Source: an uncultured Solirubrobacterales bacterium (GTDB taxonomy: Bacteria > Actinomycetota > Thermoleophilia > Solirubrobacterales > Solirubrobacteraceae). Taken from it: a stretch of 64,000 bases of DNA. The DNA lies in contig CAVYRI010000002.1 in the NCBI GenBank assembly GCA_963770885.1, forward strand, positions 29,265 through 93,264, read 5' to 3'. Made by a program: the position numbers and the translations under genes. Of the stretch, positions 35,688 to 64,000 are shown one piece after another. Each line of letters opens with the position of its first letter. Positions within the stretch are counted from its first letter, which is position 1. Below the pieces are notes generated by a model, which saw only the letters and a program-made list of their open reading frames with translations, had not been told where the DNA came from and did no database searches.

Positions 35688-37217
35688 CTAGCCCAGTTCG
35701 GTGTCCCAGCCGGCGATCAGCAGGCGAGCTGCCTCGACGTCAGGATGCAGCGGCCGGTCGCTCAGATCGGAGTTCAGATGCTCGGTCGCGGCCTGCCAAA
35801 GCGCCTGCGTCCCGGCCGCCTTGGGCTCGTAGCCGGCGAGCCGCAGCGCCCGCACGGCTACCACCAGCTCGGTCGCGACCGCCACGCGGAGCGCATCGAT
35901 CGCCTCGTGTGCTCGCCGGGCGGCGATCGGGGCCAGGCTCGAGTGCGACTCAACGCCGCGCGAGACCGTGACCGTCTGCGCGGCGACGGGCGTGACCAGT
36001 GAGCGGACCTCGGCGACCGCGGCGTGGGCGGTGTACTCGAGCACCAGCGCGCCCGACTCCGGGCCCGGCTTGCGCGCCAGAAACGGCGGCAGGCCGGTCA
36101 GGGTCGAGTCCAGCAGCGTGCTGACCCGGGCGGCGATCAGCGCGGCCGACTGGGCGACCGCCGTCCTGACCCCGTCAATCGCGTTGGCGAGCGGCGCCGC
36201 GTGGGGGTTGCCGTTGGGCAGCGCGATGTCGTCACCGGGGACGATCAGCGCGTTCTCACCGGCGAAGTTGAGCTCGTGGCCGACGGTCTCCTCGAGCGCG
36301 TTGAGCGCGTCGTGCACGGTTCCATCCACCTGCGGCTGGGCCCGGAACGGGTACGGATCCTGAACGCCGAGCGGCCCAGGCGCCCGGGTCCGCTCGCCGA
36401 CGCCCTCCAGCAGCTCGCGCATCCTGGCCGCGACCGCCGCCTGGCCCGGCCGGTGGCGCCACGAGTGGATCCGCGGGTCGAGCACCACCGGATCGGCGGC
36501 CGCAGCCTCGAATGACAGCGCCGCGACCGTCAGCCACGCATCGAGCAGCCGCCGCGCGTCGACCACCAGCAGCGCCGCGCGCCCGATGCTGACCGCGTTG
36601 GAGCTCATCAGGGCGAGACCGTCGCGGCCGCCCAGCCGGGCCGCCTGGAGGCCTGCGTCATGCAGCGCAGTCGACGCATCGAGCAGCTCCTCGCCACGCC
36701 ACACCTGTCCCTCGCCGAGCAGCGCCAGTCCGATATCGGCGAGATTGGTCAGGTCACCGGTGCCAAGCGACCCCAGCTCGCGGGTGAACGGCGACAGCCC
36801 GGCGTTGAGCAGGTTGACGAGCGCGTCGAGCAGCTCCCGCGCGACGCCGGCGCCACCGGCGCCGATCTGGTTGGCGCGGGTCGCCATCGCGGCCCGGACG
36901 AGCTGCGCGGGCAGCGGCTGGCCGGCGCCGCACGCATGGCTGCGCAGCAGGCTCAGCGAGTACTGCTGGCGGCGGTTCTTCGGCACCCGGTAGGCGCGCA
37001 GCGCGCCGACGCCGGTGGTGACGCCGTAGAGGTCGTCGCCGCGCGCGAGCAGCGCCGCGATCGCGTCGCGGGCGCGGTCGTTGCGGGCGTGCGCCTCGGG
37101 CGCGAGCTGTGCCCGGGCGCCCTCGCGCGCGATCAACGCGACCCTCTTTGGCGTCAGCGTCGCGCCGTCGAGGATCACGGGCGCGGTGGTTTCTGTCGCG
37201 AGCTGTTGCAGAGCCAT
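35688..37217 (-). CDS. aromatic amino acid lyase (HAL/PAL) family protein lacking the ASG/MIO motif (lyase 1)
   Basis: YGVTTGVG, RSHACGAG, GSLGTGDL in place of GSxGASGDL, QDPYPFRAQPQ, NGNPH. Confidence 0.85.
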   Translation of the reverse strand: MALQQLATETTAPVILDGATLTPKRVALIAREGARAQLAPEAHARNDRARDAIAALLARGDDLYGVTTGVGALRAYRVPKNRRQQYSLSLLRSHACGAGQPLPAQLVRAAMATRANQIGAGGAGVARELLDALVNLLNAGLSPFTRELGSLGTGDLTNLADIGLALLGEGQVWRGEELLDASTALHDAGLQAARLGGRDGLALMSSNAVSIGRAALLVVDARRLLDAWLTVAALSFEAAAADPVVLDPRIHSWRHRPGQAAVAARMRELLEGVGERTRAPGPLGVQDPYPFRAQPQVDGTVHDALNALEETVGHELNFAGENALIVPGDDIALPNGNPHAAPLANAIDGVRTAVAQSAALIAARVSTLLDSTLTGLPPFLARKPGPESGALVLEYTAHAAVAEVRSLVTPVAAQTVTVSRGVESHSSLAPIAARRAHEAIDALRVAVATELVVAVRALRLAGYEPKAAGTQALWQAATEHLNSDLSDRPLHPDVEAARLLIAGWDTELG

Positions 37218-37270
37218 CGCCAACGCACTCTAATCCCGTCGGCGACTTCGCGGCCAGTATCGTCGGCCGG

Positions 37271-38794
37271 ATGGACGGGTCCGTGACACTCACCGGTTGC
37301 GACCTCGATCCCGCGCTGCTGGCGGCGATCGCGCGCGACGGCGCCGCGGTCGAGATCGATCCGGCGGCGCGGGCCCGGATTGCAGCCGCCCACGCGACCG
37401 TGGAGCGAGCCGTCGCGGACGGGAGGCCGATCTACGGCGTCACGACCGGGCTTGGATCGAGGGTCGGCGAGCTGGTCGCCGGCGTCGACGGGGCGGTCTA
37501 TTCGCTGCGGACGCTCCGAGGCCGGGCGGCGGCGGTCGGCCCAGCGCTCGACCGCGAGCTCTCGCGCGCGGCGATGGCGGTCAGGTGCAACGGGATCTGC
37601 GCCGGCGGGTCGGGCGCCGGTCCGGCGGTCGCCGACGGGCTGGCGGCGCTGCTCAACGCGGGCGTGCACCCGCGGATTCCCGAGAGCGGCTCGGTTGGGG
37701 CGGCGGATCTGGTGATGCTCGCCTACGTCGGTCTGGTGTTGATCGGCGAGGGAGAGGCCGAGCTCGACGGCGAGCTGATGTCGGCGTCCGACGCGCTGGT
37801 GCGCTGCGGCCTTGAGCCCGTCGCGCTCGGGGCCAAGGACGGCCTTGCGATCTGCTCGAGCTCGGCGGTCAGCGCCGGTGCGGCGGCGTTGGCGCTGCTG
37901 GACGGCGAAGGCTGCCTGGCCTCCGTCCAGGTCTCGGCGGCGCTGTCGATGGAGGGCTTCAGAGCCAACCTGACGCCGATCGACGAACGGGTCGCGGCGG
38001 CCCGGCCGGCTCCTGGGCAGGAATGGGCAGCGGGCGGGCTGCGAGCGCTGCTGGCCGACGGCTCGCTGACCGAACCGGGGTCCGCACGCCGCCTGCAGGA
38101 CCCGCTCAGCTTCCGTTGCGCGAGCCAGATCCACGGCTCGTTACGCACGGCGCTCGACCAGCTGGCTGTCGCCGTTGACGCCGAGCTCAACGGCGCGGCC
38201 GACAACCCGCTCGTGCTGACCGCCGACGATCAGATCCTGTCGACCGGCAACTTCCACGTCCCGGCGCTCTCGCTCGCGCTCGATTCGGCGGCGATTGCCG
38301 TCGCCCAGGTGGCGGCGACCGTGGCCGAGCGCCCGGCGCGGCTGCGCACCCGCGCTTTGAGCGGGCTGCCGGCCGGACTCGTCCGCGGCGACGACGTCAC
38401 CCGCACCGGCGTCTCTCCGCTGCTCAAGACAGGGCAGGCGCTGACGCTCGAGATCCGCCACCTCGCCGCGCCGCTGGCGATCCATGCGACCGTCAGCGCC
38501 GAGGGCGTCGAGGATGACTCGACCGGCGCCACGCAGGCGGCGCTACGCCTGCGAGAGCAGCTTGCGAAACTGAGGCTGCTGATCGCGGTCGAGCTGCTGG
38601 TTGCGGCCGAGGCGGTGCAGCTCGCGTCGCCGGCCCGGTTGGGGCGCGGCACCGAGGCGGCGCAGCGTTGCGTTCGTGAGCTCGTCGCCGGGGTCGACCA
38701 CGACCGGCCGCTCGGCCCGGACGTGGAACTGCTCGCGGGGGAGGCGCTCGCGTCCGGGCGGCTGCTGGACCGCGTCCGGGAAGCGCTCGCTTGA
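37271..38794 (+). CDS. aromatic amino acid lyase (HAL/PAL) family protein lacking the ASG/MIO motif (lyase 2)
   Basis: IYGVTTGLG, GSVGAADL, LGAKDGL, LQDPLSFRC, DNPLV, TGNFH, GVEDD; TATCGT 7 nt before ATG. Confidence 0.87.
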   Translation: MDGSVTLTGCDLDPALLAAIARDGAAVEIDPAARARIAAAHATVERAVADGRPIYGVTTGLGSRVGELVAGVDGAVYSLRTLRGRAAAVGPALDRELSRAAMAVRCNGICAGGSGAGPAVADGLAALLNAGVHPRIPESGSVGAADLVMLAYVGLVLIGEGEAELDGELMSASDALVRCGLEPVALGAKDGLAICSSSAVSAGAAALALLDGEGCLASVQVSAALSMEGFRANLTPIDERVAAARPAPGQEWAAGGLRALLADGSLTEPGSARRLQDPLSFRCASQIHGSLRTALDQLAVAVDAELNGAADNPLVLTADDQILSTGNFHVPALSLALDSAAIAVAQVAATVAERPARLRTRALSGLPAGLVRGDDVTRTGVSPLLKTGQALTLEIRHLAAPLAIHATVSAEGVEDDSTGATQAALRLREQLAKLRLLIAVELLVAAEAVQLASPARLGRGTEAAQRCVRELVAGVDHDRPLGPDVELLAGEALASGRLLDRVREALA

Positions 38795-39786
38795 CGGCGA
38801 TCGAGCTCACCTACCTGAGCGGAGCCGACGTCGATGCGCTCGCGCTCGGCGATGACGAGATCCTGGAATCGATTCGCGGCGTGCTGGCCGCCCAGGGACG
38901 GGGCGAGACCGTGATCGAGCCTCGCACGCACCTCTTTCCCGGGCGCGCCGACGGCCATTTCAACGTCCTGCGCGGGGTCACCGCCGAATACGCGGGCGTC
39001 AAGGTGGTGGGCGACTTCGTCGACAACCACCGGCTCGGGCTCCCCTCGGAGATGGCGCTGCTGCTGTTGGCAGACCCCGCGACCGGCGTCCCGGCGGCAA
39101 TCGTCGACGCGACCGCGATCACCGAGATGCGAACCGGGGCGGTGACGGCGATCGGCGCCGAGCACCTCGCCCGGCGCGACGCCCGCACGCTCGGCCACAT
39201 CGGCGCCCGCGGCAGCGCCTACTGGAACGTCCGTCTGCTCTGCAGGGTGCTACCCGAGCTCGAGCAGATCCGCGTCCACTCCCGTCGCCCCGCGAGTCGT
39301 GAGCAGTTCGCCCGGCGCCTGTCAGCCGAGCTCGGAATCGATGTACGGGCGGTCGATACCTGGGAGCAGTGCGTCCGGGAAGCCGACGTGGTCGTCGAGG
39401 CCTCGCGGCTCAGCAGCCCCGAGCCGCTACTTGCGACCTCCTGGATCAAGCCCGGGGCGCTCGTGATCCCATACGGGACGGTCAGCGCCGTCGAGCTCGA
39501 CCTGACCGAGGTGATGGACAAGATCGTCGTCGACGACTGGGGCCAGGTGCACTCCGGCCCGCTCGGAGCGCTCCGCGCGCACGTCGACTCGGGCCGGCTG
39601 TCGGAGCGCAACCTCCATGGCGAGCTCGGCCAGATCGTGTCCGGCGCACTCGTCGGCCGCGAGCGCGCCGACGAGACGATCCTGTTCTGGCACCGGGGGC
39701 TCTCGATCACGGACATCGCGCTCGGCGAGGCGCTGCTCGCCAAGGCCGGCGCACGCGGGGTCGGGACCCGGCTCCCCTATCGCTAG
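38791..39786 (+). CDS. ornithine cyclodeaminase/mu-crystallin family protein
   Basis: GVKVVGDFVDN, ITEMRTGAVTAIGA, GHIGARGSA Rossmann, ADVVVEAS, GLSITDIA. Confidence 0.88.
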   Translation: MTAIELTYLSGADVDALALGDDEILESIRGVLAAQGRGETVIEPRTHLFPGRADGHFNVLRGVTAEYAGVKVVGDFVDNHRLGLPSEMALLLLADPATGVPAAIVDATAITEMRTGAVTAIGAEHLARRDARTLGHIGARGSAYWNVRLLCRVLPELEQIRVHSRRPASREQFARRLSAELGIDVRAVDTWEQCVREADVVVEASRLSSPEPLLATSWIKPGALVIPYGTVSAVELDLTEVMDKIVVDDWGQVHSGPLGALRAHVDSGRLSERNLHGELGQIVSGALVGRERADETILFWHRGLSITDIALGEALLAKAGARGVGTRLPYR

Positions 39787-39811
39787 CGGCCTGCGGTAGC
39801 GTGCGGACGCG

Positions 39812-41465
<1,654 letters not shown>

Positions 41466-41469
<4 letters not shown>

Positions 41470-42716
41470 GCCCGGGCTCGGTCTCGGTCAACGGCGCCGA
41501 GCAGATCCTGCGCCCCGACCGCGACGGCCGCCCCTACATCCGCGGCACCGACGCCGGCAGCCAGACGCTCGAGCCGGGCGATCTGCTGATCGCCGAGGGG
41601 AAGATCGCCGGGTTTGAGCCCGACGGCGACGCCGCGGTGCAGGTCGACGCGTCCGGATGCGCCGTGATTCCCGGCTTCGTCGACTGTCACACCCACCTGC
41701 CGTTCGTCGGCTGGCGGGCGTGGGAGTACGAGCAGAAGATCGGCGGCGTGCCCTACGAGCAGATTTCGCGCGAGGGTGGCGGGATCGCATCGTCGGCCCG
41801 CGCGCTGGCCGAGAGCTCCGACCAGCAGGTGCTCGACCAGTCGGCTGCCCTGGCCGCCGAGATGCTGGCCGCGGGGACGACCACGTTCGAGTGCAAGTCC
41901 GGCTACGGCCGCTCGCGCGAGGGTGAGCTGCGGGCGCTGGCGCTCGCCCGTGAGCTCGACGACCGCGTCGTGCAGACGACCACCTCGACCGCGCTGCTCG
42001 CCCACTCGGTGCCGCCGGGATACACGGCCGACGAGTGGATGGATGAGGTCGAGGCGATGATGCCCGAGGTGGTTGCGCCCGGGAGCGTGAGCGCGGTCGA
42101 CATCTTCGTCGAGTCGATCGCGTTCGACAACGACCATCTGACCCGGATGGGCCGGCTCGCCGCCGACTCGGGGCTGGCGCTCCGCTGTCACGTCGAGCAG
42201 TTCGGCGGCCTGCGCTCGGTGCCGGTCGCGCTCGCAGCAGGCGCCCGCTCGGTCGATCACCTGTCGACCCTTCACAGCGATGACGTCGAGCCGCTCGCCG
42301 CATCGGAGTGTGCGGCGGTGCTGCTGCCGGCCGCCGAGTTTCTCGGCGCCGAGCACCGTGCTCCAGGGCGCCGGCTGCTCGATGCCGGCGCGATCGTCGT
42401 GCTCGCGACCGATCTGAACCCCGGCACGGCGCCGGTTGCGTCGCTGCCGGTGGTGATCGGGCTGGCGGTGCGGCTGTATGGGATGAGCCCGCGCGAGGCG
42501 CTCGCGGCGGTGACGCTGAACGGCGCCTGGACGGTGGGGCTGGAGCGCGATCGGGGGTCGATCGAGCCCGGCAAGCGAGCCGACCTGCTGGTGCTCGACG
42601 GGCCGGTGGACCGGGTCGCATACCGCTTCGGTCGTAACCCGGTTGCGGTCGTGATCGTCGACGGTGCGGTCGCCTATGTGCGTGATGACGCGCGCGGGCG
42701 GGTGAGCGAGCGATGA
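41466..42716 (+). CDS. hutI: imidazolonepropionase
   Basis: [62 protein letters not shown]. Confidence 0.88.
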
Positions 42717-43831
42717 GGAGCGCGTCGATTCCCGCGATGGCCAACGCCCACAGCCACGCGTTCCAGCTCGACCTGCGCGGGGTCGGCGAGCGGCCGCACC
42801 CCGGCGATGACTTCTGGAGCTGGCGCAACGAGATGTACCGGCTCGCCGGCAGCCATGACCCGGACTCGATGCGCGCCGTCGGCGAGCGAGTCTACGGCCA
42901 GATGGCGGCCGCCGGGTACGGCGCGCTGGGCGAGTTTCACTACGTCGTTCACCAGCCTGACGGGACGCCGTACCCCGAGCCCAACGCGATGGCGATCGCG
43001 CTTGCGCAGGCGGCCCTGGCATCTGGACTGGAGATCGTGCTGCTGCCCGCGGCCTACAACCGCGGCGGCGCCGGGCGCGCGCCAGATCCGGGCCAGCGGC
43101 GCTTCTGCGACCCCGACGTTGCGACGTTCCTTGAGCGCACCGACCGGTTGCGCGAATGGGCCGACGGCCAGCGGGGTGTCAGCGTCGGGGTCGCGGTCCA
43201 CAGCGTTCGCGCGGTCGGAGCCGACTGGATCGAGGCGATCGCCCGCTACAGCGACGAGCACCGCCTGGTCCGTCACGTGCACGCATGCGAGCAGCTGCGC
43301 GAGCTGTCCGAGTGCGACGCCGAGCACGGCTGCTCGCCGATCGAGTTGCTGCAGCGCACCGGCTTCCTCGGTCAGCGGTGCAGCGTCGTGCACGCGATCC
43401 ACGTCAGCGACCGCGACGTCGAGCTGCTCGCCGCGACCGATTCGATCGTGATCACCTGCCCGACGACCGAGGGCAACCTCGGTGACGGATATCTGCCGGC
43501 GCTGCGCTACCGCGATGCGGGTGTGCGGCTCGCGATCGGGACCGATTCCCAGGTCCGGATTGACCCGTTCGAGGAGCTGCGCGAGATGGAGACGCTCGCG
43601 CGCCGAGAACGCCAGACGCGCTATGCCCTGCTCGAGGCGGCCGACGGCGACCTCTGGGGGCAGACGGTCGCCAACGGTCGCGCGAGCCTGGGACTGTCGG
43701 GCGCAGGGCGTGAGGTTGAGATCGATCTCGATTCACCTGAGCTGGCCGGGGTGGCCGAGCGGGACCTGCCGCTCGCGCTGGCGACCTGCGCGTCGGCGGC
43801 GATCGTCCGCGGCGGGGGCGTTCGACGATGA
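42713..43831 (+). CDS. hutF: formimidoylglutamate deiminase
   Basis: [59 protein letters not shown]. Confidence 0.9.
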
Positions 43832-45219: not shown

Positions 45220-45222
45220 GTC

Positions 45223-47379: not shown

Positions 47380-47404
47380 GCTATACGTGCAGAGCGTTCC
47401 AAGA
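47362..47404. other. 43-nt inverted repeat (possible terminator or operator) between two minus-strand genes
   Basis: TCTTGGAAC-cgaa-TGCACG-ctata-CGTGCA-gagc-GTTCCAAGA directly after the stop at 47405. Confidence 0.6.
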
Positions 47405-54119: not shown

Positions 54120-55057
54120 TCGGCCGTTCGCAACCGGATCCGCGGGTTCAGCAGCGAGAAGCCGATGTCGGCCACCAGCGTCACAACCATGTACACGATC
54201 CCGATCGTCAGCACGCACGCCTCGAGCATCGGGATGTCGTGCTGGTTTGCGGCGTTGTACGTGAGCATCCCGATGCCGTTGTAACGAAACAGCGTCTCGA
54301 CGACGACCAGGCCGCCGATCAGGTAGCCCGTCTGGGTCGCGATCACGGTGATCGTCGGCAGCAGCGAGTTGCGCAGCACGTGGCGACGGATCACGACCCC
54401 GCGCGGCAGGCCCTTCAGGGTCGCCGTCCGCGCGTAGTCTGACTCGAGCGCCTCGACCGTTCCAGCACGGGCCATACGGGCGATGTACCCGAAGAGGACC
54501 AATACGAGCGGGATCACCGGCAGGATCAAGTACTTCAGCTGGGTGAAGAAGCCCGACCCCGCCGGAGCGGTGGCCGTCACAGGCAACCACCCGAGCGCGA
54601 TCGAGAACACGACGAGCAGCACGATCCCCGAGACGAACTCAGGCACCGTCAGGGCCGACTGGCCGACGATGCTGATCGTCCGATCCAGCGGCTTGCCGAA
54701 GTTGAGCGCCGAGACGATGCCGCCGATCAGCCCCAGCGGCACGACGATCACGAACGCGAACACCGCCAGCTTCAGCGAACGGCCCAGCGCGCTGGTCAGG
54801 ATCGGCCCGATCGGCGCCTGGTACTGGGTCGAGGTGCCGGGGAAGTGGGTGATCCAGTTCCAGTACTGCGTCAACAGCGGCTTGTCGACGCCAAGTGTGT
54901 GATCGAGCGCGCGGACCGCGCTGGGCGCGGCGAGCGGCCCGAGCACCGAGCGCCCCGGATCGCTCGGTAGGACCTGGCCGAGGACGAACACGATCACGCT
55001 CAGCAGCCACAGCGTTACCAGCGCCAGGCCGAGCCGCTTGAGGATGAAGCCCGTCAT
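54116..55057 (-). CDS. peptide/nickel ABC permease (DppB-like)
   Basis: LKRLGLAL, YARTATLKGL, HVLRNSLLP, VVVETLF.YNGIG, DIPMLE, LNPRIR. Confidence 0.92.
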   Translation of the reverse strand: MTGFILKRLGLALVTLWLLSVIVFVLGQVLPSDPGRSVLGPLAAPSAVRALDHTLGVDKPLLTQYWNWITHFPGTSTQYQAPIGPILTSALGRSLKLAVFAFVIVVPLGLIGGIVSALNFGKPLDRTISIVGQSALTVPEFVSGIVLLVVFSIALGWLPVTATAPAGSGFFTQLKYLILPVIPLVLVLFGYIARMARAGTVEALESDYARTATLKGLPRGVVIRRHVLRNSLLPTITVIATQTGYLIGGLVVVETLFRYNGIGMLTYNAANQHDIPMLEACVLTIGIVYMVVTLVADIGFSLLNPRIRLRTAE

Positions 55058-55073
55058 CGGCCGCCCGCCGGCA

Positions 55074-56768
55074 TCAGCTCTTGTAGGCCGTGTTGAGGTA
55101 TAGCTGCGCGATCGAGGTCGGGTTCAGCCCGCCCACATTCGGCGTCGAGGCGGTCAGGCCGTCGATCCAGTACGGGATCACGATCGGCGTCTCGTTGAGC
55201 AGCAGCGTCTCGATCTTGCCCGCGATCTGCTTCTGCGTCGTCAGATCGAGCGCGGCGACGTACTGCTTGACGAGCGCGTCGTACTGGCTGTTCTTGAAGT
55301 GAGCCGCGTTCCACGGCCCCGTCGAGGTCAGCGGTGCCTCGAGATAGACGTTCGGCACGCCACGGTCCCCGTAGTCGACAAGGCTTGCCGTGCCGTCCAG
55401 CCAGTCGGAGTTGCCGTACGTCGCCTTGCCGTAGTAGAGCGTCTGGCTCTCGATCTTGAGATCGAAGTTGATCCCCGCCTTGGCCGCGTCCTCCTTGATC
55501 ACCTGTGCCAACTGGGGGATCTCCTGGTAGACCTCGGTGAACAGCGGCGCGCTGATTCCGGATGAATGGCCCGCCGCCGCCAGCAGCTGCTTGGACTTGG
55601 CGATGTCCTGCTCGCGCTGCGGAAGCGAGAGATCCGAGGACGGGAACCGGGGCCCGAACGGCGTGTCGTTGGCGACCGTGCCGTAGCCGCCGAGCAGCGC
55701 GTTGACCATGCCCTTGCGGTCCAGCGAGTAGGCGACCGCCTGACGGACGCGGGCGTCGGTGAACGGCGCCTGGTCGTTGCGCATCGACAGCTCACGATGG
55801 TTGGCCGACTTGAGCTGGATGATCTTGTAGGAGGGGTTGTGAAGGATCGCCGTCGCGCCCGCCGGCACGAACTGCGCGATCACGTCGACCGAGCTTCCCT
55901 GCAGCGCGAGGATCATCGGCGGCTGGCTGGCGTAGAACTTGAACGACGTGCTCGCCAGCAGCGGCTTGGGCCCCCAGTAGTTGGGGTTGGGCACGAACGA
56001 CGCGCCGACGTTGGTCGTGTAGCTCGAGAGCTTGAAGGCGCCGGTGCCGACGAACGTCTTCTGCCACTTGGAGAAGTCGGTTCCGTTGGGAACGATGATC
56101 GCGTTGTAGTTGTCTGACGAGACCAGGTACGGGAAGTTCCCGTTCGGCGACTCGAGATGGAACTCGACCGTCGTCGAATTGACCTTCTTGACGCCGTCGG
56201 GAGTGAGCACGCTGGTGAACGTCGACAGCGCGTTGGAGGCGTTGTTCTTGTCCGATAGCTGCTTGAACGTGTAGACGACGTCGTCGGCGGTCATCGGCGC
56301 CCCGGTGCTGAACTTCACGCCGGGGCGGAGCTTGAAGGTCCACACGCTGCCGTCACCGTTGTGGCTCCAGCTGAGCGCCAGCATAGGCTGCAACGCGAGC
56401 TTCAGGTTGCTGTCGAAGATCAGGAACTCGCCGGTCTGGTTGAGCATGCACAGACCGCCCGCGTCGGCCACCGTGAGCGGGTTGACGGCGGCCGATGGGG
56501 TCACCGATGCGACCTGGAGCGTGCCGCCGGACTTCGGCGCGGCGCCGCTGGTCGACGACGCGGCGCCCGCCGACGAGGACGAGGAAGAACTGCCGCACGC
56601 GGCCAGGATCGTCCCCAGCAGCACCGTGGACATGCCAATCGTGCTGCCCCGGCGAAGGAACTGACGGCGATCGATCCGCCCCGCGAGGAGCTCGTCGATG
56701 TAGTGGTTTTCGAGTTCGCTGCGTCCGGCGCGGATCTCATCGAGCCTGCGCGTCTGATCCTTATCCAT
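55074..56768 (-). CDS. family 5 ABC substrate-binding lipoprotein with twin-arginine-like signal
   Basis: IDRRQFLRRG...LAAC lipobox, Ser-rich linker, PMLALSW, WTFKLRPGVKF, VGTGAFKL, PFTDARVRQA; ATG 56768 after AAAGGAAG. Confidence 0.9.
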   Translation of the reverse strand: MDKDQTRRLDEIRAGRSELENHYIDELLAGRIDRRQFLRRGSTIGMSTVLLGTILAACGSSSSSSSAGAASSTSGAAPKSGGTLQVASVTPSAAVNPLTVADAGGLCMLNQTGEFLIFDSNLKLALQPMLALSWSHNGDGSVWTFKLRPGVKFSTGAPMTADDVVYTFKQLSDKNNASNALSTFTSVLTPDGVKKVNSTTVEFHLESPNGNFPYLVSSDNYNAIIVPNGTDFSKWQKTFVGTGAFKLSSYTTNVGASFVPNPNYWGPKPLLASTSFKFYASQPPMILALQGSSVDVIAQFVPAGATAILHNPSYKIIQLKSANHRELSMRNDQAPFTDARVRQAVAYSLDRKGMVNALLGGYGTVANDTPFGPRFPSSDLSLPQREQDIAKSKQLLAAAGHSSGISAPLFTEVYQEIPQLAQVIKEDAAKAGINFDLKIESQTLYYGKATYGNSDWLDGTASLVDYGDRGVPNVYLEAPLTSTGPWNAAHFKNSQYDALVKQYVAALDLTTQKQIAGKIETLLLNETPIVIPYWIDGLTASTPNVGGLNPTSIAQLYLNTAYKS

Positions 56769-57663
56769 GACTTGACTTCCTTTCGGTGGCAATCGATCCT
56801 GCGCCGGCCGCTGCCGCGGAATCGACGCTTACATCACTAATTCGATCAAATTTGGTGGGGGACGGGTCTTTGGCGGGGGGCAGGTCAGCCAGGGGGGCGA
56901 GTGATCGCGCTGCGCTGATTAGGTCAGGGAGCATTTCAGCCTTTCGCTCGGACGTCATCCGCCCGCTGGGGATGCACAACGTGAGCGCGGCGGCGACGCG
57001 GCCCACCGGCCCGACCCGCACCGCGACGCAATGGAGTCCGAGCGCGGTCTCGTCGATGTTCTCGCCGTAGCCACGTTCGCGCGTCCGCTCGAGGATCAGG
57101 TGGAGCTCGTCCAGCCCGCCGAGCCGCCGCCCGGTCGGGGTCACCAGCTCCCTGCCGGCGAACATCGCGTTGACCCGTTCGCGCGGCAGGTCGGCGAGCA
57201 GGACGCGGCCCGCCGCGGATGCGAACGCCGGCAACCGGCTCCCGACCGGGCTCACGAGCCGCACCGGGTGGGTCGTCTCGACCTTGGCCAAGAACAGGCT
57301 GTCGAGGCCGTCGAGCACCACCAGGCAGGTGGTCTCGTTGTGGCGCGCGACAAGCCGTCCGGCGACCGAGTGAAAGCCGTTGGTCAGCGCCGCCGCCGGC
57401 GCAGCTCGCGCGAGCCGAGCCGTGCGGGGGCCGAGCGCGAGCGTCGACGTGCCGGCGTCGCGCGCGATCCAGCCGCGCTCGAGCATCATTGAGCAGACCC
57501 GGTGCAAGGTGCTCTTGGGGGCGCCGGTCTCCCGTGAGAGCTCGGCCAGGGTCAGCGTGCCGCAGCCGTCAAGCGCGTCGAGCACGTCAAGCACCGTCGC
57601 GACGCCGGCTGAGCGAGCGCGCGGCCTTCGTGGCGCGTGGGGGCGCACCGCTGAACCTGCCAA
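56761..57663 (-). CDS. IclR family transcriptional regulator
   Basis: LDVLDAL..TLAELSRETGAPKSTLHR, ETTCLVVL, VGSRLPAFASAAGRVLLA, DETALGLHCVAV; both ends uncertain. Confidence 0.85.
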   Translation of the reverse strand: MAGSAVRPHAPRRPRARSAGVATVLDVLDALDGCGTLTLAELSRETGAPKSTLHRVCSMMLERGWIARDAGTSTLALGPRTARLARAAPAAALTNGFHSVAGRLVARHNETTCLVVLDGLDSLFLAKVETTHPVRLVSPVGSRLPAFASAAGRVLLADLPRERVNAMFAGRELVTPTGRRLGGLDELHLILERTRERGYGENIDETALGLHCVAVRVGPVGRVAAALTLCIPSGRMTSERKAEMLPDLISAARSLAPLADLPPAKDPSPTKFDRISDVSVDSAAAAGAGSIATERKSSHG

Positions 57664-57749: not shown

Positions 57750-57765
57750 GACGGCCAATCAGCGC

Positions 57766-59004
57766 CTAACGGTCAGGGCTCGGGCTGGCCGCGCGCGCCG
57801 CGGCAGCCCCCGCCAGCACCTCGGCGACTACCCGGGTCGCGGCGATGATCTCGTCGATGTCGGCGCCCTCCTGGGGGGTGTGGGACTCGCCGCCGTGGAG
57901 CGGGACGAAGACCAGCAGCGTCGCGATCTGCGCCGCCAGGTGCTGGGCGTCGTGACCGGAGCCCGACCAGGTCTTGATCGCGCCGATGCCGAGCGACCGT
58001 GCGGCGTCGACGGCGGCATCGGCGAGCCCTGGGTGCAGCGCCACCGGATCCCCGGTGCGGACCAGCTCGACGTCGACGGTCACCCCCCGGCGTTGCGCGA
58101 TCGCAGCCGCATCACCGCGGATCTCGGCCTCGAGTCGATCCAGCGACGGTCCCGAGATCGCTCGCGCGTCGATCGTCAGCCTGGCGGTACCCGGAATCAC
58201 GCTCACCGCCCCAGGCGTGATTTCGATCTCGCCTACGGTCGCAACCGTCTCTGGGTCCTCGGCGCTGGCGGCGGCCTCGACCGCGAGCACGAGCTCGGCG
58301 GCGGCGGCCAGGGCGTCATGGCGCTCCTCCATCGCCACCTCGCCGGCGTGGCCGGACCTGCCGGCGATCAGCCCCTGCAGCCGACGGGGCGCGGCGACCT
58401 TGGTGACCACGCCGAGCTCGCGCAGTGACCGCCGCTGGGCGACGTGGATCTCGGCGTGCGCGATCACGCGCCCGAGAGCCGGCTGGACGCGCGGCAGCTC
58501 GCCGACGGCCTGCAGATAGGTGACCCGCGCCTGCGCGGCGCTCACCCCGGCCGCGTCTCGGAAACGCTCGAGCTCACGCTCTGAGAGGGTGCCGACCAGC
58601 AGCCGCGAGCCAACGGTGCCGGCCGCGAAGCGCGGTGCCTCCTCGGCCGCGCAGACGAGCAGGCCCGCCCGGGCGCCAGCAGCGAGCCGTTCGCCGAGGT
58701 CATTGACGAGCTCGAGCCCGAGCACGGTCCCGAGCGCACCGTCGTAGCGGCCACCGTCGGGAACGGTGTCGACGTGTGAGCCGGCCGTGACGACCGGGCC
58801 GCTCCAGCCCGCGGGCAGCGCCCAGAGGTTCCCGAACGGGTCGATCCCGGGCTCCAGCCCGGCCTCGCGCGCCCAACCGGCGACGAGCAGCATCGCCTCC
58901 GCCTCGGCGGTCGAGAAGGCAGGGCGGTCGGCCCCGCCGGCAAGACCCCTGGCGATCTGCCACAGCTGCTCCAGGCGCGCGGCGATCCGCTCACGGTCAG
59001 GCAA
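57766..59004 (-). CDS. M20-family N-carbamoyl-L-amino acid amidohydrolase (allantoate amidohydrolase-like)
   Basis: DPFGNL, GSHVDTVPDGGRYDGALG, AAEE, GRSGHAG, DALAAAAE, PGAVSVIPG, SGSGHDAQ; TTG start overlapping upstream stop. Confidence 0.88.
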   Translation of the reverse strand: MPDRERIAARLEQLWQIARGLAGGADRPAFSTAEAEAMLLVAGWAREAGLEPGIDPFGNLWALPAGWSGPVVTAGSHVDTVPDGGRYDGALGTVLGLELVNDLGERLAAGARAGLLVCAAEEAPRFAAGTVGSRLLVGTLSERELERFRDAAGVSAAQARVTYLQAVGELPRVQPALGRVIAHAEIHVAQRRSLRELGVVTKVAAPRRLQGLIAGRSGHAGEVAMEERHDALAAAAELVLAVEAAASAEDPETVATVGEIEITPGAVSVIPGTARLTIDARAISGPSLDRLEAEIRGDAAAIAQRRGVTVDVELVRTGDPVALHPGLADAAVDAARSLGIGAIKTWSGSGHDAQHLAAQIATLLVFVPLHGGESHTPQEGADIDEIIAATRVVAEVLAGAAAARAASPSPDR

Positions 59005-60067
59005 GCGCGAACTCCGCCAACGGCTTGCCGAGCATCGCCTCGACCTCGGGGTAGACGCTCGGCTCCTTGACGCCGTCACCGAGCGGGACATTGGCCTTGG
59101 GCACGTGCAGGACGGCGACCTCGTCGCCCTCGCGGAGGTTGGCGATCGAGATGATCCTTCCGGTCTGCACCGACAGCGTCGCCAGGACGTCGGGGAAGGT
59201 GGCCAAGCGCTCGCCGCCCGACTCGGCGGTCAGGTACTCGTTGACGAATCCCAGCTCCAATTCATCGACGACGATCGTGCCGACGTCAAACGCGTTCTCG
59301 GTTCTCAGCTCGCGGCTGCGGACACGACCCTCCGCGATCACCGCGCCGCCGAGATGGTCGGCGGTCGTCTCGATCATCCGTCTCGGGCCGTCGGCCTCGA
59401 CGGCGAGGATCGCCTCGCCGAGCGCCAGCGCGAAGCTGATCGCGCCGACCGCCGCATGGCGGGCGACGAACGACGCCGGGAGCGGGTTGCGCGCGCACGA
59501 GATGAAGCCACCGGATTGCTCGGCGGCGGTGCGGAGCACGTTGGCGGTGTGGCGAACCGTGCCCCGGGTGACCACCTCGAGGTAGCGGTTCTGCGCCCGG
59601 TTGCCGCCTGCGACGGCCTGGACAGTCTGGTGGTCGTCATCGGCGGCGAGCCCAAACGAGCCCATCTTGCCGGTCGGGTGGGCGCGCCCGTCACCGGCGG
59701 CGTCGATCACCAGCGTGCCGAGCACCGCGGACGCGACCCAGCCGTTGCAGGTCGTCGAGGAACCGTTCTGGGCGGTGACGGTGCCGACGATCGGCGCGGG
59801 CACCGCCTCGATCAGCAACTGGAGCGCGCGGACATAGTCGCCCGGTCGCATCTCCCAGCCGACGGCGGCCGGCGCGCCGATCGCGCTCACCGTCGCGAGC
59901 ATCGCCTCGGGGTCGACCTCGCCCAGTGAGGCGAGCCGGGGCGTCCCGTACTGGACGGCGGTCGTGCCGACGAGCATTCCATGGTCGACCCAGCCGCCGC
60001 CACCGGCGGCGAGCACCGAGCCGCCCGCGACGGCTGCGTGGACGGCAGCCAGATCCAGGTCTCTCAC
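58997..60067 (-). CDS. DUF917 family protein (candidate thiohydantoin desulfhydrase)
   Basis: GGSVLAAGGGG, VSAIGAP, AQNG, VIDAAGDGRAHP..KMG, NEY, TFPDVL; 356 aa. Confidence 0.85.
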   Translation of the reverse strand: MRDLDLAAVHAAVAGGSVLAAGGGGWVDHGMLVGTTAVQYGTPRLASLGEVDPEAMLATVSAIGAPAAVGWEMRPGDYVRALQLLIEAVPAPIVGTVTAQNGSSTTCNGWVASAVLGTLVIDAAGDGRAHPTGKMGSFGLAADDDHQTVQAVAGGNRAQNRYLEVVTRGTVRHTANVLRTAAEQSGGFISCARNPLPASFVARHAAVGAISFALALGEAILAVEADGPRRMIETTADHLGGAVIAEGRVRSRELRTENAFDVGTIVVDELELGFVNEYLTAESGGERLATFPDVLATLSVQTGRIISIANLREGDEVAVLHVPKANVPLGDGVKEPSVYPEVEAMLGKPLAEFALA

Positions 60068-61710
60068 GGCTCACCTCCAATCGTCGGCAATCCAAGGCCA
60101 AACTCCCGCGCACCGGCCTGCGCTTGCTCGAGGCCCGCGTCGGCGTGGCGCAGAACGCCAAGCGCGGTGTCGACGTTCAGGGCGCCGGCGAGACGCAGCC
60201 GCGCGTCCTCGGTGCCGGTGGCGACCACGGTCATGCCGGCGCTCTGCGAGTAACCGGCGTAGCCACCGCCGCCGGCGTGAAGGGCGACGAGGTCCGCGCC
60301 GGCGGCCGTCGTCAGCAGCGCGTTGAGCAACGGCCAGTCGCTGATCGGGTCAGAGCCGTCGGGCATCGCCTCGGTGATTATGTTGGGGTGGGTCATCGCG
60401 CCGCCGTCCATGTGATCGCGGGTGAACGCGACCGGCGCCTGCAGCCGTCCGTCGGCGACCGCCTCGTTGACCGCGAGCGCCAGCCGCGCGCGCTCGCCGT
60501 GTCCGAGCCAGGCGATCCGCGCCGGCAGCCCCTGGCGGCTGACGTGTTCGCGCGCCAGCGCGATCCAGTTGACGATCCGCGGCACCCCGTCGAACAGCTC
60601 CAGGCAGAGATCATCGACGAGCTCGAGATCGCCGTCCTCACCCGACAGGCAGATCCAGCGAAAGGGCCCGATCCCGCGGCAGAACAGGGGCCTGATGTAG
60701 CGCGCGGTGAAGATGTCGATGTCGAGCGCCTCGGGAAGTCCGCCACCCGCCGCCTGAGGCCGGATGTTATTGCCGTAATCGAACGTGATCGCGCCCCGCT
60801 CACGCAGCTCCAGCATCGAGCGGACGTGAGCGACCAGCGTCGCCAGCGCGAGCGCCTCGAGCTTGCCCGGATCGCCGAGCCGCAGCGCGGCCACCTCGTC
60901 CATCGCGAGCCCCGCCGGCAGGTAGCCGCTGCGCAGGTCATGCGCGGCGGTCAGGTCGGTGACGACGTCGGGCACGACGCCGCGCCCGACCAGTCCCTTC
61001 AGCAGCTCGGCCGCGTTGACGGCGACTCCGACGGCCAGCGGGCGGCGATCGGCGCGGGCCGCGAGTGCGGCGTCGAGCGCCTCGTCGATCACGTCGGCGG
61101 CGAGATCGAGCTTGCCCTCGTCGAGCCGGCGGCGCACCTTGTCGGGATCGGCGTCGGCGACCAGGCAGACGCCGCCGAGCATCCGGGCGATCGCGACCGG
61201 CTGCGCGGCGCCCATCCCGCCGAGGCCTGCGGTTGTGACCAGACGCCCGCTCAGCGAGCCGCCAAAGTGCTCGCGTGCGACCTCGGCGAACGTCTCGTAG
61301 GTCCCCTGGAGCACTCCCTGGGCGCCGATGTACTGCCAGCACCCGGCGGTCAGCCCGCCCCACGCGATCAGGTTGCGCCGCTCGAGCTCGTAGAAGATCT
61401 CCGGCGTTGCCCAGCGGCCGACGAGGTTGCCGTTGGCCAGCAGGACAGCTGGTGAGCGCGGGCCGGTGGGCAGCACCGCGATCGGCTTGCCCGACTGGAC
61501 GATCAGCGTCTCGCCGTCGCCGAGCACGAGCAGCGCGGCGACGATCGCGTCGAGGCTGTCTCGGTCACGGGCCACCTTGGCGTGGGCGGCGTAGACGACC
61601 AACCGCTCGGGATCCTCGGCGATCGCGAGGTTGTTCTCCAGCAGTCGCAGGATCGCCTCCTGGCGCCAGCCGCGGCAGCGCAGAGAGGGTGCCCGAGGGG
61701 CCTCAGGCAC
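60064..61710 (-). CDS. divergent urocanate hydratase homologue (candidate thiourocanate hydratase)
   Basis: [90 protein letters not shown]; start uncertain (61710 or 61728). Confidence 0.88.
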   Translation of the reverse strand: MPEAPRAPSLRCRGWRQEAILRLLENNLAIAEDPERLVVYAAHAKVARDRDSLDAIVAALLVLGDGETLIVQSGKPIAVLPTGPRSPAVLLANGNLVGRWATPEIFYELERRNLIAWGGLTAGCWQYIGAQGVLQGTYETFAEVAREHFGGSLSGRLVTTAGLGGMGAAQPVAIARMLGGVCLVADADPDKVRRRLDEGKLDLAADVIDEALDAALAARADRRPLAVGVAVNAAELLKGLVGRGVVPDVVTDLTAAHDLRSGYLPAGLAMDEVAALRLGDPGKLEALALATLVAHVRSMLELRERGAITFDYGNNIRPQAAGGGLPEALDIDIFTARYIRPLFCRGIGPFRWICLSGEDGDLELVDDLCLELFDGVPRIVNWIALAREHVSRQGLPARIAWLGHGERARLALAVNEAVADGRLQAPVAFTRDHMDGGAMTHPNIITEAMPDGSDPISDWPLLNALLTTAAGADLVALHAGGGGYAGYSQSAGMTVVATGTEDARLRLAGALNVDTALGVLRHADAGLEQAQAGAREFGLGLPTIGGEP

Positions 61711-63088
61711 CGGCTGCCGCGGGCTCACGTGCCGTCGATCCGCGCTCACCCGGGGCGGCGCCGTGCTCGCGGGGAAGGACTGCGGGTACAAATCGGCCGT
61801 GGCCCGGAGCCGAGCCGACGCTGGTGCCGTCCCACACCTGCACCCCGCGCGAGAAGGCGGCGATCACCCGGCCCCGCAGGCGCCGGCCGGCGTACGGGCT
61901 CCAGCCGGCAGCCGTCACCAGCCGCGCCGGATCGATCTCCCACTCGAGCTCGGGATCGAGCACGAGGACGTCGGCGTCGGCGCCGGGCAGCAGGTTGCCC
62001 TTGCGGGGCCAGAGCCCGAACCGGCGGGCGGGCGCCTCGCTGACCAGCCGCACCAGTGCATGCGCGCCGAGCGCGTCGTGGACGAGCGGAACGATCAGCT
62101 CGACGCCCGGCGCGCCCGATGCGAGCGCGAAGATGTCGGGCCCGTGCTTGCGCTCCACCGGCCAGCCGACGTGGTCTGACGAGATCAGATCGAGGCCATC
62201 GACCGGCAGCGGTGCGGCGCGCAGCGGCGGGTTGATCTTCGCCTCGCCTCCCTGGCGCACCAGCTCGGTCTCGTCGAGCAGCAGGTAGTGCGGGCAGGTC
62301 TCTGCGGTCACGTCGACACCGTCGCGGCGGGCCGCGATCACCAGCTTCACCGCGCGGGGCGTCGAGACGTGGCAGATGTGGATGCGGACCCCGGTCGCGC
62401 GCGCCAACTCGAGCACCCGCGCGACGGCCTCGTGCTCGGCGACCGGCGGTCGCGAGCGAGCATGGGCGAGCGGATCGGCGCCACCGGTGGCGGCCTGCTC
62501 GGCCGCGATCCCGGCGCGGACTATCTCGTCGTTCTCGGCGTGGATGCCGGCCAGGCCGCCGGCCGCCGCGATCTGCTGGAACGCTGCCAGTAACTGCCCG
62601 TCGGGGATCCGGGGGAAGCGCTGCGGGTGGGTCTCGAAGGTCGAGAGCTTGAACGCGGCAGCCCCGGCAGCGACGAGCGCCGCGACCTCGTCGATCGCGC
62701 CGCGGGGCGGGACCGTCGCCCACAGACCGACATCGACGTGCGCCTCGCGCTCGACGTCGGCGACCTTGGCCGCGAAGGCGTCCACGGTGTCGATCGGACC
62801 GGCGGCGTCGTAGGGCATGTCGACGATCGTCGTCACGCCGCCCGCGGCGGCTGCGCTCGTGCAGCGCTCGATTCCCTCGCCGTCATAGCTGCGGGTGTGG
62901 ACGTGGACATCCACCGCGCCGGGGAGCAGCAGCGCGTCGCCGTAATCGATGCCACCGGGCAGTGGCTCGCCAACGTGCTCGATACGACCGTCGCGGATTG
63001 ACAGGCCAGCCCGTCTCGCGGCCCCGTTGAGGCCGAGAACCCTTCCCGAAACGTTCTCGATGGCTGAGATAGAGGTAGGGTATAACAC
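61703..63088 (-). CDS. cyclic amidohydrolase (allantoinase/hydantoinase/dihydroorotase family)
   Basis: PGAVDVHVH, AAAAGGVTTIVDMP, FKLS, HAEN, HICHVST, ETCPHYL, KINPPLR, SSDH, GADADVL; start uncertain. Confidence 0.88.
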   Translation of the reverse strand: MLYPTSISAIENVSGRVLGLNGAARRAGLSIRDGRIEHVGEPLPGGIDYGDALLLPGAVDVHVHTRSYDGEGIERCTSAAAAGGVTTIVDMPYDAAGPIDTVDAFAAKVADVEREAHVDVGLWATVPPRGAIDEVAALVAAGAAAFKLSTFETHPQRFPRIPDGQLLAAFQQIAAAGGLAGIHAENDEIVRAGIAAEQAATGGADPLAHARSRPPVAEHEAVARVLELARATGVRIHICHVSTPRAVKLVIAARRDGVDVTAETCPHYLLLDETELVRQGGEAKINPPLRAAPLPVDGLDLISSDHVGWPVERKHGPDIFALASGAPGVELIVPLVHDALGAHALVRLVSEAPARRFGLWPRKGNLLPGADADVLVLDPELEWEIDPARLVTAAGWSPYAGRRLRGRVIAAFSRGVQVWDGTSVGSAPGHGRFVPAVLPREHGAAPGERGSTAREPAAAGA

Positions 63089-63097
63089 CCATAGCTC

Positions 63098-64000
63098 ATG
63101 ACCATCGTCTCAGCTAACGAGAAGATTCTCCTCAGTGGCGATGGTCTGACCGTGGACGACGTGCTGGCGATCGCACGCGGCCGCGCGCGGGTCGAGCTCG
63201 ACCCGGCTGCGCTCGTCCGCGTTCGCGCGGCGCGCGAGGTCGTCGACCGGGTGCTGGCCAGCGGTGAGTCGGTGTACGGGCTCAACACTGGTCTCGGATC
63301 GCTGTCGCGCCACCACATCGCGCTCGACGAGATCGGCGCGTTCTCGTTCGCGACGGTCGCCGATCAGGTCTCCTCCTACGGCCGCCCGCTGCCGAGCGAC
63401 GTCGTGCGCGCGATGATGGTCTCGCGGGTCAACGGCATGCTGAAGGCCGGAGTGGGGGTGACGCGTGAGCTGATCGAGCTGCTGGTCGCATTGCTGAACG
63501 CCGACGTGCACCCGATCGTGCGGATGCTTGGATCGGTCGGTCAGGGTGACCTGTCGGAGATGGCCGACATCGGCAAGGTCCTGATCGGCCGCGGCTGGGC
63601 CGAGTACGAGAACGAGACCGTGCCCGGTGACGAGGCGCTGCGCCGCGCCGGGATCGAGCCGATCGCCTTGGGCCCCAAGGAGGCGCTCGGGTTGATCAGC
63701 GCCAACGGGGTGACGATCGGGCGCGGCTCGCTCGTCCTCGTCGACGCCGCCGACCTGATCGAGAGCATGCAGATCGCTGCGGCGCTCAGCTTCGAGGCGT
63801 TCGCGGCGAACCTCTCGATCATTCATCCGGCTGCCGATCGCGCCCGTCCCCACTCCGGTCAGCAGACCGCGAGCGCGCGGCTGCGCGAGCTGCTGGAGGA
63901 CTCCGAGCTGTGGCGGCCCGGTGCGGCCCGAAACCTCCAGGACCCGCTCTCGATCCGCTGCGTGCCGCAGACCCACGGCGCCGTCTATGACGCGCTCTCG
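63098..64000 (+). CDS. aromatic amino acid lyase family protein lacking the ASG/MIO motif (lyase 4; candidate ergothioneine/hercynine TMA-lyase), 3'-truncated by the window edge
   Basis: Own translation from ATG 63098 (missing from the ORF track, no stop before the edge): LSGDGLTVDDV, VYGLNTGLG, GSVGQGDL, LGPKEAL, ISANG, LQDPLSIRCVPQTHG; TATAAC at 63081-63086. Confidence 0.87.
   Translation, partial: MTIVSANEKILLSGDGLTVDDVLAIARGRARVELDPAALVRVRAAREVVDRVLASGESVYGLNTGLGSLSRHHIALDEIGAFSFATVADQVSSYGRPLPSDVVRAMMVSRVNGMLKAGVGVTRELIELLVALLNADVHPIVRMLGSVGQGDLSEMADIGKVLIGRGWAEYENETVPGDEALRRAGIEPIALGPKEALGLISANGVTIGRGSLVLVDAADLIESMQIAAALSFEAFAANLSIIHPAADRARPHSGQQTASARLRELLEDSELWRPGAARNLQDPLSIRCVPQTHGAVYDALS

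Follow-up and report, generated by a model that had tools for sequence, protein, structure and literature searches.

The stretch of DNA considered here (64,000 nucleotides, positions 29,265 to 93,264 of contig CAVYRI010000002.1 in assembly GCA_963770885.1; hereafter the window) belongs to an uncultured soil actinobacterium of the Solirubrobacterales, placed in the Solirubrobacteraceae by its named relatives, and has a G+C content of ~70%. It carries four genes of the histidine ammonia-lyase (HAL) family, designated HAL1 to HAL4, none of which encodes the Ala-Ser-Gly triad that yields the 4-methylideneimidazole-5-one (MIO) group. The four open reading frames (ORFs) match Pfam PF00221 above its cut-off of 27.3 bits (scores in Table 1, that of HAL4 referring to a partial gene). 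At the former MIO site they read GSLGTGDL, GSVGAADL, GNGGAGEI and GSVGQGDL, exactly where the initial annotation had placed these motifs. Compared with the canonical HutH of the same genome (GSLGASGDL), every loop is one residue short, with TG, AA, AG or QG at the site, and Ser is absent from all four window copies. All four proteins score below the hutH equivalog cut-offs and lack any x-Ser-Gly triad for MIO. The Tyr loop, also as first described, is retained in three of them (YGVTTGVG, YGVTTGLG and YGLNTGLG) and is reduced in HAL3 to the Tyr alone (YGVNVHAG). PF00221 genes number six in the whole genome; the remaining two, on contigs C1 and C5, carry GASGD, so that the MIO-less state is specific to the four clustered genes. 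Orthologs of HAL2 mostly read G-A-S-D at the site, often with the Ser kept. The idea that these orthologs still form MIO was rejected, since the deleted residue is the ring-closing Gly and the window copy has Ala for Ser.

The genes fall into two loci. In locus A (34-46.5 kb), HAL1 and a transporter gene of the MFS family are read in one direction, and HAL2, a gene of the OCD/mu-crystallin family (hereafter the OCD gene), hutU, hutI, hutF, HAL3 and an amidohydrolase gene in the other. In locus B (57.8 kb to beyond the window end), HAL4 diverges from four genes whose products resemble ErtD, thiourocanate hydratase, the desulfurase and ErtE, and an APC-family permease gene lies downstream; the full HAL4, of 525 amino acids, was read from the genome at L003:1453-3027. 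Taken as a whole, the two loci probably serve the breakdown of histidine betaines taken up from soil, and the parts of this explanation are of unequal strength.

Table 1. Features of loci A and B, with coordinates in the window, strand and the main profile matches
Feature	Position	Strand	Matches and remarks
DHA2-type MFS transporter	34131..35633	-	MFS_1 217 bits; TIGR00711 288 bits; QacA/B-like matches
HAL1, MIO-less lyase	35688..37223	-	PF00221 421 bits; GSLG-TG-DL 36750-36773
HAL2, MIO-less lyase	37271..38794 (likely start 37271; ORF open from 37109)	+	PF00221 416 bits; GSVG-AA-DL 37688-37711
OCD/mu-crystallin-family NAD(P) enzyme	38791..39786	+	PF02423 182 bits (cut-off 24); start overlaps HAL2 stop
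hutU, urocanate hydratase	39812..41458	+	TIGR01228 pieces 474, 253, 141 bits; three frames
hutI, imidazolonepropionase	41490..42716 (start approximate)	+	TIGR01224 321.6 bits > cut-off 298
hutF-type formimidoylglutamate deiminase, short form	42713..43831	+	NF006681 415 bits > cut-off 362
HAL3, divergent HAL-fold protein	43828..45219	+	PF00221 156 bits; GNGG-AG-EI 44242-44265
Amidohydrolase after HAL3, accessory	45223..46518	+	Amidohydro_1 154 bits; Xaa-Pro dipeptidase NCBIfam 224 bits, below cut-off
IclR-family regulator, end of ergothioneine set	56761..57663	-	
M20 carbamoylase-type amidase, ErtE-like	57766..59091	-	TIGR01879 265 bits > cut-off 204; NF058540 246 < 520
Thiohydantoin desulfurase-like, ErtC-like, S-Me-THD fold	58997..60067	-	NF058529 427.5 vs cut-off 440; NF058532 (S-methyl) 297
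Urocanase paralog, thiourocanate hydratase-like, ErtB-like	60064..61791	-	NF058530 746 (cut-off 930); NF058531 703; hutU 646
Hydantoin-5-propionate amidohydrolase-like, ErtD-like	61703..63088	-	NF058538 411 (cut-off 600); NF058539 409; best matches, below cut-off
HAL4, ergothionase-type lyase	63098..64000, plus 675 bases beyond window	+	PF00221 303 bits (partial); GSVG-QG-DL 63530-63553

Members of the HAL family that lack MIO and release trimethylamine are established, namely the ergothionase TdETL of Treponema denticola (PDB 6s7j and 6s7q) and the Shewanella enzymes Swoo_3913, a hercynine lyase, and SO_3299, an N-pi-methyl-hercynine lyase, which yield urocanate or methylurocanate (bioRxiv 10.1101/2025.08.13.670108; 10.64898/2026.04.22.720169). 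Their diagnostic residues are a Tyr base, a Gln/Arg/Asn carboxylate site, His and Glu as imidazole ligands and Lys384 for the thiolate of ergothioneine, this Lys being replaced by Asn or Gln in the non-sulfur enzymes (10.1101/2025.08.13.670108; 10.64898/2026.04.22.720169). The proposal in the initial annotation of a set of MIO-independent lyases for histidine betaines is, as an idea, already embodied in these three enzymes. What stands of it is that HAL1, HAL2 and HAL4 belong to the MIO-less clade, in three sub-clades with distinct pocket residues, and that their gene contexts point to histidine betaines.

For the phylogenetic evidence, HAL2 served as query against 1.8 billion representative proteins. 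This gave 8695 matches, of which the best 150 were taken, and 137 of these, near full length (430-570 residues), were classified together with our own sequences. Named after the residues in the columns of His83 (Pseudomonas putida HAL numbering, used for all columns unless stated) and of Lys384 of TdETL, the classes comprise 69 MIO-less (Arg,Lys) sequences, 12 (His,Lys), 3 (Gln,Arg) and 13 MIO-less (His,Tyr) sequences, besides 20 with true MIO. The largest class, that of HAL2, spans no fewer than 69 clusters (50% identity) within the best 150 representatives. In a quick FastTree phylogeny, built on HAL2-biased representatives with an assumed root, all shortened-loop forms make up one clade (106 of 129 rows, Shimodaira–Hasegawa-like support 95) nested among canonical HALs. 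Within it, HAL1 stands in a sub-clade of 3 rows (support 100), HAL4 in one of 17 rows (support 96) and HAL2 in the (Arg,Lys) sub-clade of 71 rows (support 99), alongside the ergothionase-type (His,Lys) group. A member of that group, P0510, scores 594 bits against 6s7j, which places the solved ergothionase there, with none of the four window proteins. The phylogenetic check proposed at the outset therefore supports a shared clade with the ergothionase type for HAL1, HAL2 and HAL4 and leaves out HAL3, a long branch (2.5) of uncertain place. The accompanying structural check turned out well for the two proteins modelled: the AlphaFold2 models of HAL2 and HAL3 are confident HAL folds, with mean predicted local distance difference test (pLDDT) scores of 95.5 and 90 and template modelling (TM) scores to HAL of 0.93 and 0.87, respectively, HAL2 also reaching 0.92 to 6s7j.

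In none of the clades is the dipeptide of the former MIO site constrained (AA, AS, AG, SS, EA, ES, VA, MG and TG occur in the HAL2 sub-clade), and so it carries no specificity signal; the suggestion that the TG, AA, QG and AG variants mark new activities is accordingly abandoned. The columns that do discriminate are those of His83, Tyr280, Asn195 and TdETL Lys384. Equivalents of Tyr53, Gln277, Arg283 and Asn313 are present in all four proteins. HAL1 retains His83, Tyr280 and Glu414, and Tyr fills its Lys384 column, as in true HALs. In the same order, these four columns read Arg, Leu, Glu and Lys in HAL2 and Gln, Leu, Glu and Arg in HAL4. HAL3 keeps Asn195-Gly, has lost Glu414, shows a 23-residue deletion after the loop and has Met in the Lys384 column. 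The two imidazole-ligand columns (His83 and Glu414) hence hold His and Glu in HAL1, Arg and Glu in HAL2, Gln and Glu in HAL4 and, in 85% of HAL3 orthologs, His without Glu; a cationic residue occupies the Lys384 column in HAL2 and HAL4, and is literally Lys in HAL2 only. TdETL for its part has the HAL fold without MIO, a loop one residue shorter (SSIG-EG-DI), the catalytic Tyr, the Gln/Arg/Asn carboxylate site and the Glu, and also Leu at Tyr280 and S-x-N for Asn195-Gly. It differs from HAL4 by the Gln/Arg pair of the latter, from HAL2 by the replacement of His by Arg with the Lys kept, and from HAL1 by Tyr in the Lys column and the retained Tyr280. All four window proteins stand outside its (His,Lys) sub-clade. 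Among related lyases, P0390, P0404, P0441, P0488 and P0506 carry N-terminal cyclic-nucleotide-binding or PAS-GGDEF-EAL domains, which are either sensor fusions or gene-calling artefacts; the N-terminal fusions seen in such relatives (cyclic-nucleotide-binding, GGDEF-EAL, ThiF and FlK) gave no functional lead.

Locus B is the best understood part of the window. A five-step catabolism of ergothioneine reportedly proceeds through ErtA-E of Burkholderia sp. HME13, and is said to have been reconstituted in vitro by Beliaeva, Leisinger and Seebeck in 2021. Like that set, locus B unites in one divergent cluster a lyase, a urocanase paralog, a desulfurase of the S-Me-THD fold, a cyclic amidohydrolase and an M20 amidase (NF058529, NF058530, NF058538-40), and the Ert models are the best or near-best NCBIfam matches for all four partner genes. 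The closest solved relative of HAL4 is the ergothionase (6s7j, 252 bits, versus 228 for any histidine ammonia-lyase), and the urocanase paralog is 49-52% identical to the hutU of the operon. Locus B is therefore very probably the known five-step pathway. In it, HAL4 would split trimethylamine from ergothioneine without MIO, and its four partners (urocanase paralog, desulfurase, hydantoinase-type amidohydrolase and M20 amidase) would convert thiourocanate to glutamate. HAL4 is read as an ergothionase with a variant pocket, within a known kind of enzyme, and the simplest view makes it the usual ergothionase of a known pathway that is complete here, in place of the new activity once envisaged. 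Two features count against this assignment, and both set locus B apart from the Burkholderia set, as does the host, a member of the Thermoleophilia. All four partners remain below the equivalog cut-offs (746/930, 427.5/440, 411/600 and 246/520), and in HAL4 Gln replaces the imidazole-binding His and Arg the Lys384 called essential in the ergothionase literature; these residues, Gln90 and Arg390, are 100% conserved in 121 orthologs. S-methyl-ergothioneine was considered as a substrate of HAL4 and rejected, as the neighbouring desulfurase and hydratase score higher against the non-methyl models than against the S-methyl ones. A search for egtD (TIGR03438) found no match in the 93%-complete genome (G000), so that the organism appears to consume, rather than make, ergothioneine-type betaines.

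Locus A is, by its other genes, the main hut operon of the organism. Its hutU, hutI and hutF are canonical by NCBIfam score and form the only hutU-hutI-hutF set of the genome. hutI and hutF exceed their curated cut-offs, no other hutI does so in the genome, and the true, MIO-bearing hutH lies alone on contig C1. Unlike a canonical hut operon, this one opens with MIO-less lyases and an OCD-family gene and leaves hutH to another contig. More than 20 Solirubrobacteraceae genomes share the order MFS-HAL1 / HAL2-OCD-hutU-hutI-hutF(-HAL3). Both HAL3 and the final amidohydrolase gene may be missing from it, the latter being present in G016 and L031 and absent from other relatives; a hutF product of 365-387 amino acids is found in relatives as well. 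Since all informative contexts of these lyases are either hut or ergothioneine genes, the betaines of Trp, Phe and Tyr, which had been listed among possible substrates, find no support here.

For HAL1, the complete histidine-binding set (Tyr53, His83, Gln277, Tyr280, Arg283 and Glu414) in the absence of MIO makes a hercynine lyase the likeliest function. Judged from these residues, HAL1, paired with the MFS transporter, probably converts hercynine (N-alpha-trimethylhistidine) to trimethylamine and urocanate. It resembles the Shewanella lyases in residue logic (His and Glu ligands, Tyr base, neutral Lys384 column), the comparison being limited to the residues described for them; those lyases work in the periplasm, coupled to flavocytochrome reductases in anaerobic respiration, whereas HAL1 is cytoplasmic and tied to the Hut pathway and an MFS transporter. 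It adjoins the MFS transporter in 30 related loci. Genes of its type are rare: among 300 evenly drawn Actinomycetota genomes they occur in the genus of the window and in one other genome only (G096), in the order hutH, OpuA-type betaine ABC importer, HAL1-like gene (48%), M20 amidase, hutU, hutF and hutI. That HAL1 and HAL2 might be complementary half-enzymes was rejected on account of the complete residue set in each.

HAL2 belongs to a large sub-clade of which we know of no tested member, and to our knowledge no function has been described for its OCD partner. A scan of species-representative genomes gave 80 HAL2 loci, in which neighbours were called by tblastn with known queries and by ORFs filtered on third-position G+C content; the 68 with sequence on both sides were counted. 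The 80 loci come from Solirubrobacterales, Gaiellales, Acidimicrobiaceae, Streptosporangiaceae, Streptomyces, Pseudonocardia and several alphaproteobacterial orders. An OCD homolog (62-83% identity) lies directly beside the HAL2-type gene in 45 of the 68 and is present in 50, in both gene orders and in both Actinomycetota and Alphaproteobacteria. Canonical hut genes, not Ert genes, occur at 30 of the 68. OpuA-type betaine importers flank HAL2-OCD in six loci (G005, L037, L042, L053, L108 and L120), and a Streptomyces megaplasmid repeats the OpuA / OCD-HAL2 module, other plasmid matches being mostly true hutH. In four related loci of uncultured actinobacteria (L077, at 4202-7915, L059, L060 and L076), a sulfite-oxidase-like molybdenum enzyme is encoded divergently beside the pair, accompanied in three of the four by SBP56, of the methanethiol-oxidase family, and, counted separately, in three by a sulfatase. 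Arg85, Lys386, Glu414 and Tyr55 are invariant in 47 diverse members of the HAL2 type.

The OCD protein aligns end to end with its best solved relatives, the Pyr2C reductase 6t3e, archaeal alanine dehydrogenase (1omo) and SbnB, and its Arg44, Lys71 and Arg114 align with the carboxylate triad of 6t3e and 1omo. With these and other enzymes of the OCD/mu-crystallin family (SbnB 4m54 and the iminosuccinate reductase BhcD) it shares a full-length alignment, the Rossmann fold and the Arg-Lys-Arg triad. All its NCBIfam matches remain far below the cut-offs and give no equivalog-level assignment. A lyase or dehydratase teamed with a reductase of the OCD type brings BhcB/BhcD and EutB/EutC to mind, and we know of no OCD-family member with a HAL-fold lyase partner or an imidazole substrate.

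A tentative function can be put together from these data. The two cationic residues of the HAL2 pocket, one of them the Lys that binds the thiolate in ergothionase, suggest a ring substituent that is anionic or contains sulfur. Removal of this substituent by reduction is in turn suggested by the nicotinamide enzyme, by the link to plain hutU instead of the thiourocanate branch and by the occasional sulfite oxidase. HAL2 would thus strip trimethylamine from a histidine betaine with an anionic or sulfur group at C2 of the imidazole, the candidates being ergothioneine, its sulfonate or sulfinate, and its S-methyl form. The OCD reductase would remove the C2 substituent after, or possibly before, this step, and the skeleton would enter the Hut pathway at urocanate. 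That the HAL2-OCD unit takes an imported C2-substituted histidine betaine to urocanate is the reading that we favour for the pair, though at clearly less than even odds. The narrower version is a route of two enzymes, so far undescribed and independent of oxygen, that leads directly to urocanate. Its starting compound would be ergothioneine or one of the sulfonate, sulfinate and S-methyl forms; once the lyase had released trimethylamine, hydride from NAD(P)H would reach C2 and displace sulfide, sulfite or methanethiol. This version is slightly more doubtful again. Were it correct, it would bring a new type of reaction to the mu-crystallin family and, in many soil Actinomycetota and Alphaproteobacteria, would feed the breakdown of an antioxidant into ordinary histidine degradation. 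The replacement of HutH by HAL2 and OCD on free histidine was also considered and rejected, since that conversion is redox-neutral, the imine would have no route to lose its nitrogen and a true hutH is present.

Several observations speak against the reductive route. The Arg-Lys-Arg triad seats an alpha-imino or alpha-amino acid over the nicotinamide, which does not obviously fit the delivery of hydride to C2 of an imidazole. The sulfite-oxidase adjacency amounts to four related loci only. In four Solirubrobacteraceae loci (L033, L042, L055 and L071), HAL2 runs straight to hutU without OCD, so that HAL2 alone may suffice for urocanate. A non-Pyl methyltransferase of the MttB family is the divergent neighbour of HAL2 in all 11 alphaproteobacterial loci, which points to N-demethylation chemistry outside the reductive model. 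A point against the explanation of the two loci as a whole is that the hutU of the window carries two frameshifts, near 40725 and 41160; the gene is intact in all relatives examined. Its pieces in the window together reach ~868 bits against TIGR01228. The first site could be the deletion of an 8-base repeat or an error in a run of G, and the second looks like a single inserted C. In the related G011 the MFS gene is likewise split over three frames, so that these assemblies may carry indel errors.

There is also a matter of priority. Reductive desulfurisation of thiourocanate is reportedly carried out by gut anaerobes (a thiourocanate desulfhydrase, ascribed to Feng 2025), and a pathway for ergothioneine sulfonate is said to operate in Agrobacterium radiobacter (ascribed to Yan, Huang and Zhang 2022). 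HAL2-OCD would already be a known system, should the sulfonate pathway turn out to employ a reductase of the OCD type.

The strongest competing explanation makes HAL2 a plain hercynine lyase. The OCD enzyme would then act separately on an alpha-amino or alpha-imino acid, for example by oxidation of N-alpha-methylhistidines or as an amino-acid dehydrogenase, and HAL1 on another N-substituted histidine. It draws on the loci just cited in which HAL2 precedes hutU without OCD, on G005, where an OpuA importer accompanies HAL2-OCD-hutUIF with no HAL1, and on the alpha-carboxylate triad of imino-acid reductases kept by OCD. The pocket argues otherwise: the characterised hercynine lyase has the imidazole-binding His and a neutral residue in the Lys384 column, whereas the HAL2 type has an invariant Arg and Lys, and the histidine-binding set is complete in HAL1, not in HAL2. 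That HAL2 and OCD pair so tightly, in both orders and in two phyla, is a further argument for one shared substrate. We hold this explanation to be unlikely, to about the same degree as the hydride mechanism proposed above.

A second alternative concerns HAL3, for which 457 homologs were found, all of this lineage and all annotated as histidine ammonia-lyase; where present, it always follows hutF. HAL3 is not a pseudogene: in 120 orthologs Tyr56, Asn172-Gly173, Gln250, Arg256, Asp285-Asn286 and His305 are conserved to ~100%, the former Ser position being Ser, Pro or Ala. With the base Tyr and the carboxylate site kept and the imidazole-binding Glu lost, HAL3 may act on another substrate or serve as a partner subunit. 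Active sites of the HAL fold are built from several subunits, and HAL3, possibly with one other paralog, could on this ground lack independent activity and enter a mixed tetramer with HAL1 or HAL2, in which it would be either non-catalytic or complementing. Its lack of Glu414 and of a surface hairpin, with the equivalents of Tyr53, Asn195, Gln277 and Arg283 retained, is compatible with such a role, and it occurs only downstream in loci that also hold HAL1 and HAL2. These two proteins nonetheless have complete residue sets and need no complement, many loci do without HAL3, and the strict conservation of its carboxylate site and base Tyr fits a catalyst equally well. A mixed tetramer seems somewhat less plausible than the hercynine-lyase alternative for HAL2.

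According to a third alternative, HAL2 and OCD cooperate with corrinoid or MttB-type demethylases on partly methylated histidines: one methyl group of the betaine would pass to a methyltransferase, leaving dimethylamine or methylamine to be removed by the lyase and the NAD enzyme. The alphaproteobacterial MttB neighbours mentioned above are its main argument, together with a gene of the same family in the window (18890-20566, the 45% homolog being placed at 19127-20560) within a corrinoid methyl-transfer cluster (12-20 kb); in view of this homology, the cluster might act on a histidine betaine besides or instead of glycine betaine. Against it, the MIO-less lyases tested so far in the literature strictly require a trimethylammonium group, the MttB gene is absent from actinobacterial loci and stands ~17 kb away in the window, and no chemistry is evident for an NAD enzyme on a tertiary amine; this alternative is improbable. 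That the four genes are ordinary ammonia-lyases or decayed pseudogenes in which the loss of ASG means nothing, as the public annotation (histidine ammonia-lyase) and the frameshifted neighbouring hutU might suggest, is hardly credible given the deletion of the ring-closing Gly and absence of Ser in the window copies, the lack of ammonia-lyase activity in a MIO-less homolog, the hundreds of intact conserved orthologs per type and the true hutH kept in the genome.

Returning to the betaine-catabolic explanation of both loci, HAL4 would fall into a known pathway, HAL1 is probably a case of a recently described activity, and HAL2 represents a large sub-clade whose reductase partner is conserved. 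Family membership, the loss of MIO, residue patterns, clade placement and neighbourhoods are direct observations on these sequences, from which we infer all substrates and the reductase chemistry. Ergothioneine and hercynine are abundant microbial and fungal betaines whose breakdown releases trimethylamine. The starting lyases tested so far are a handful, all from one or two sub-clades, and the window sets three further sub-clades beside one of known type, which makes them natural mutual controls. Should these functions hold, very many ‘histidine ammonia-lyase’ annotations in soil metagenomes would need correcting.

Some further genes deserve mention. A 299-amino-acid protein is encoded after OCD-HAL2 in two Streptomyces loci (L108:9518-10417 and L120:10392-11288, 82% identical) and in L066 (9625-10428, 63%); no NCBIfam profile matches it at E<=1e-8, and the module may have in it a third component. 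The genome holds a second, intact hutU (777 bits) at L114 (G000:C1:93000-107000), accompanied by two HyuA-type hydantoinase/oxoprolinase genes and a GntR regulator, not by hutI, which may belong to another imidazole or hydantoin pathway. Between the two loci, beside the IclR gene, an Opp/Dpp-type ABC transporter (51145-56792, minus strand) with a binding protein of family 5, two permeases and a fused double ATPase could serve as importer for either pathway. Adjoining locus A on the minus strand (47405-51137), and likewise beside this locus in L027, L030 and L031, are genes for a zinc alcohol dehydrogenase, a homolog of the formaldehyde-activating enzyme Fae, an enolase-superfamily MR/MLE enzyme and a HIBADH-type dehydrogenase, a module that may handle formaldehyde from the oxidation of methylamine or methanethiol. 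An AbiEi-like/DUF559 gene (MTES_1575 endonuclease-like, 46474-47457) separates this module from locus A and occupies the same place in G011, G016, G005 and L031.

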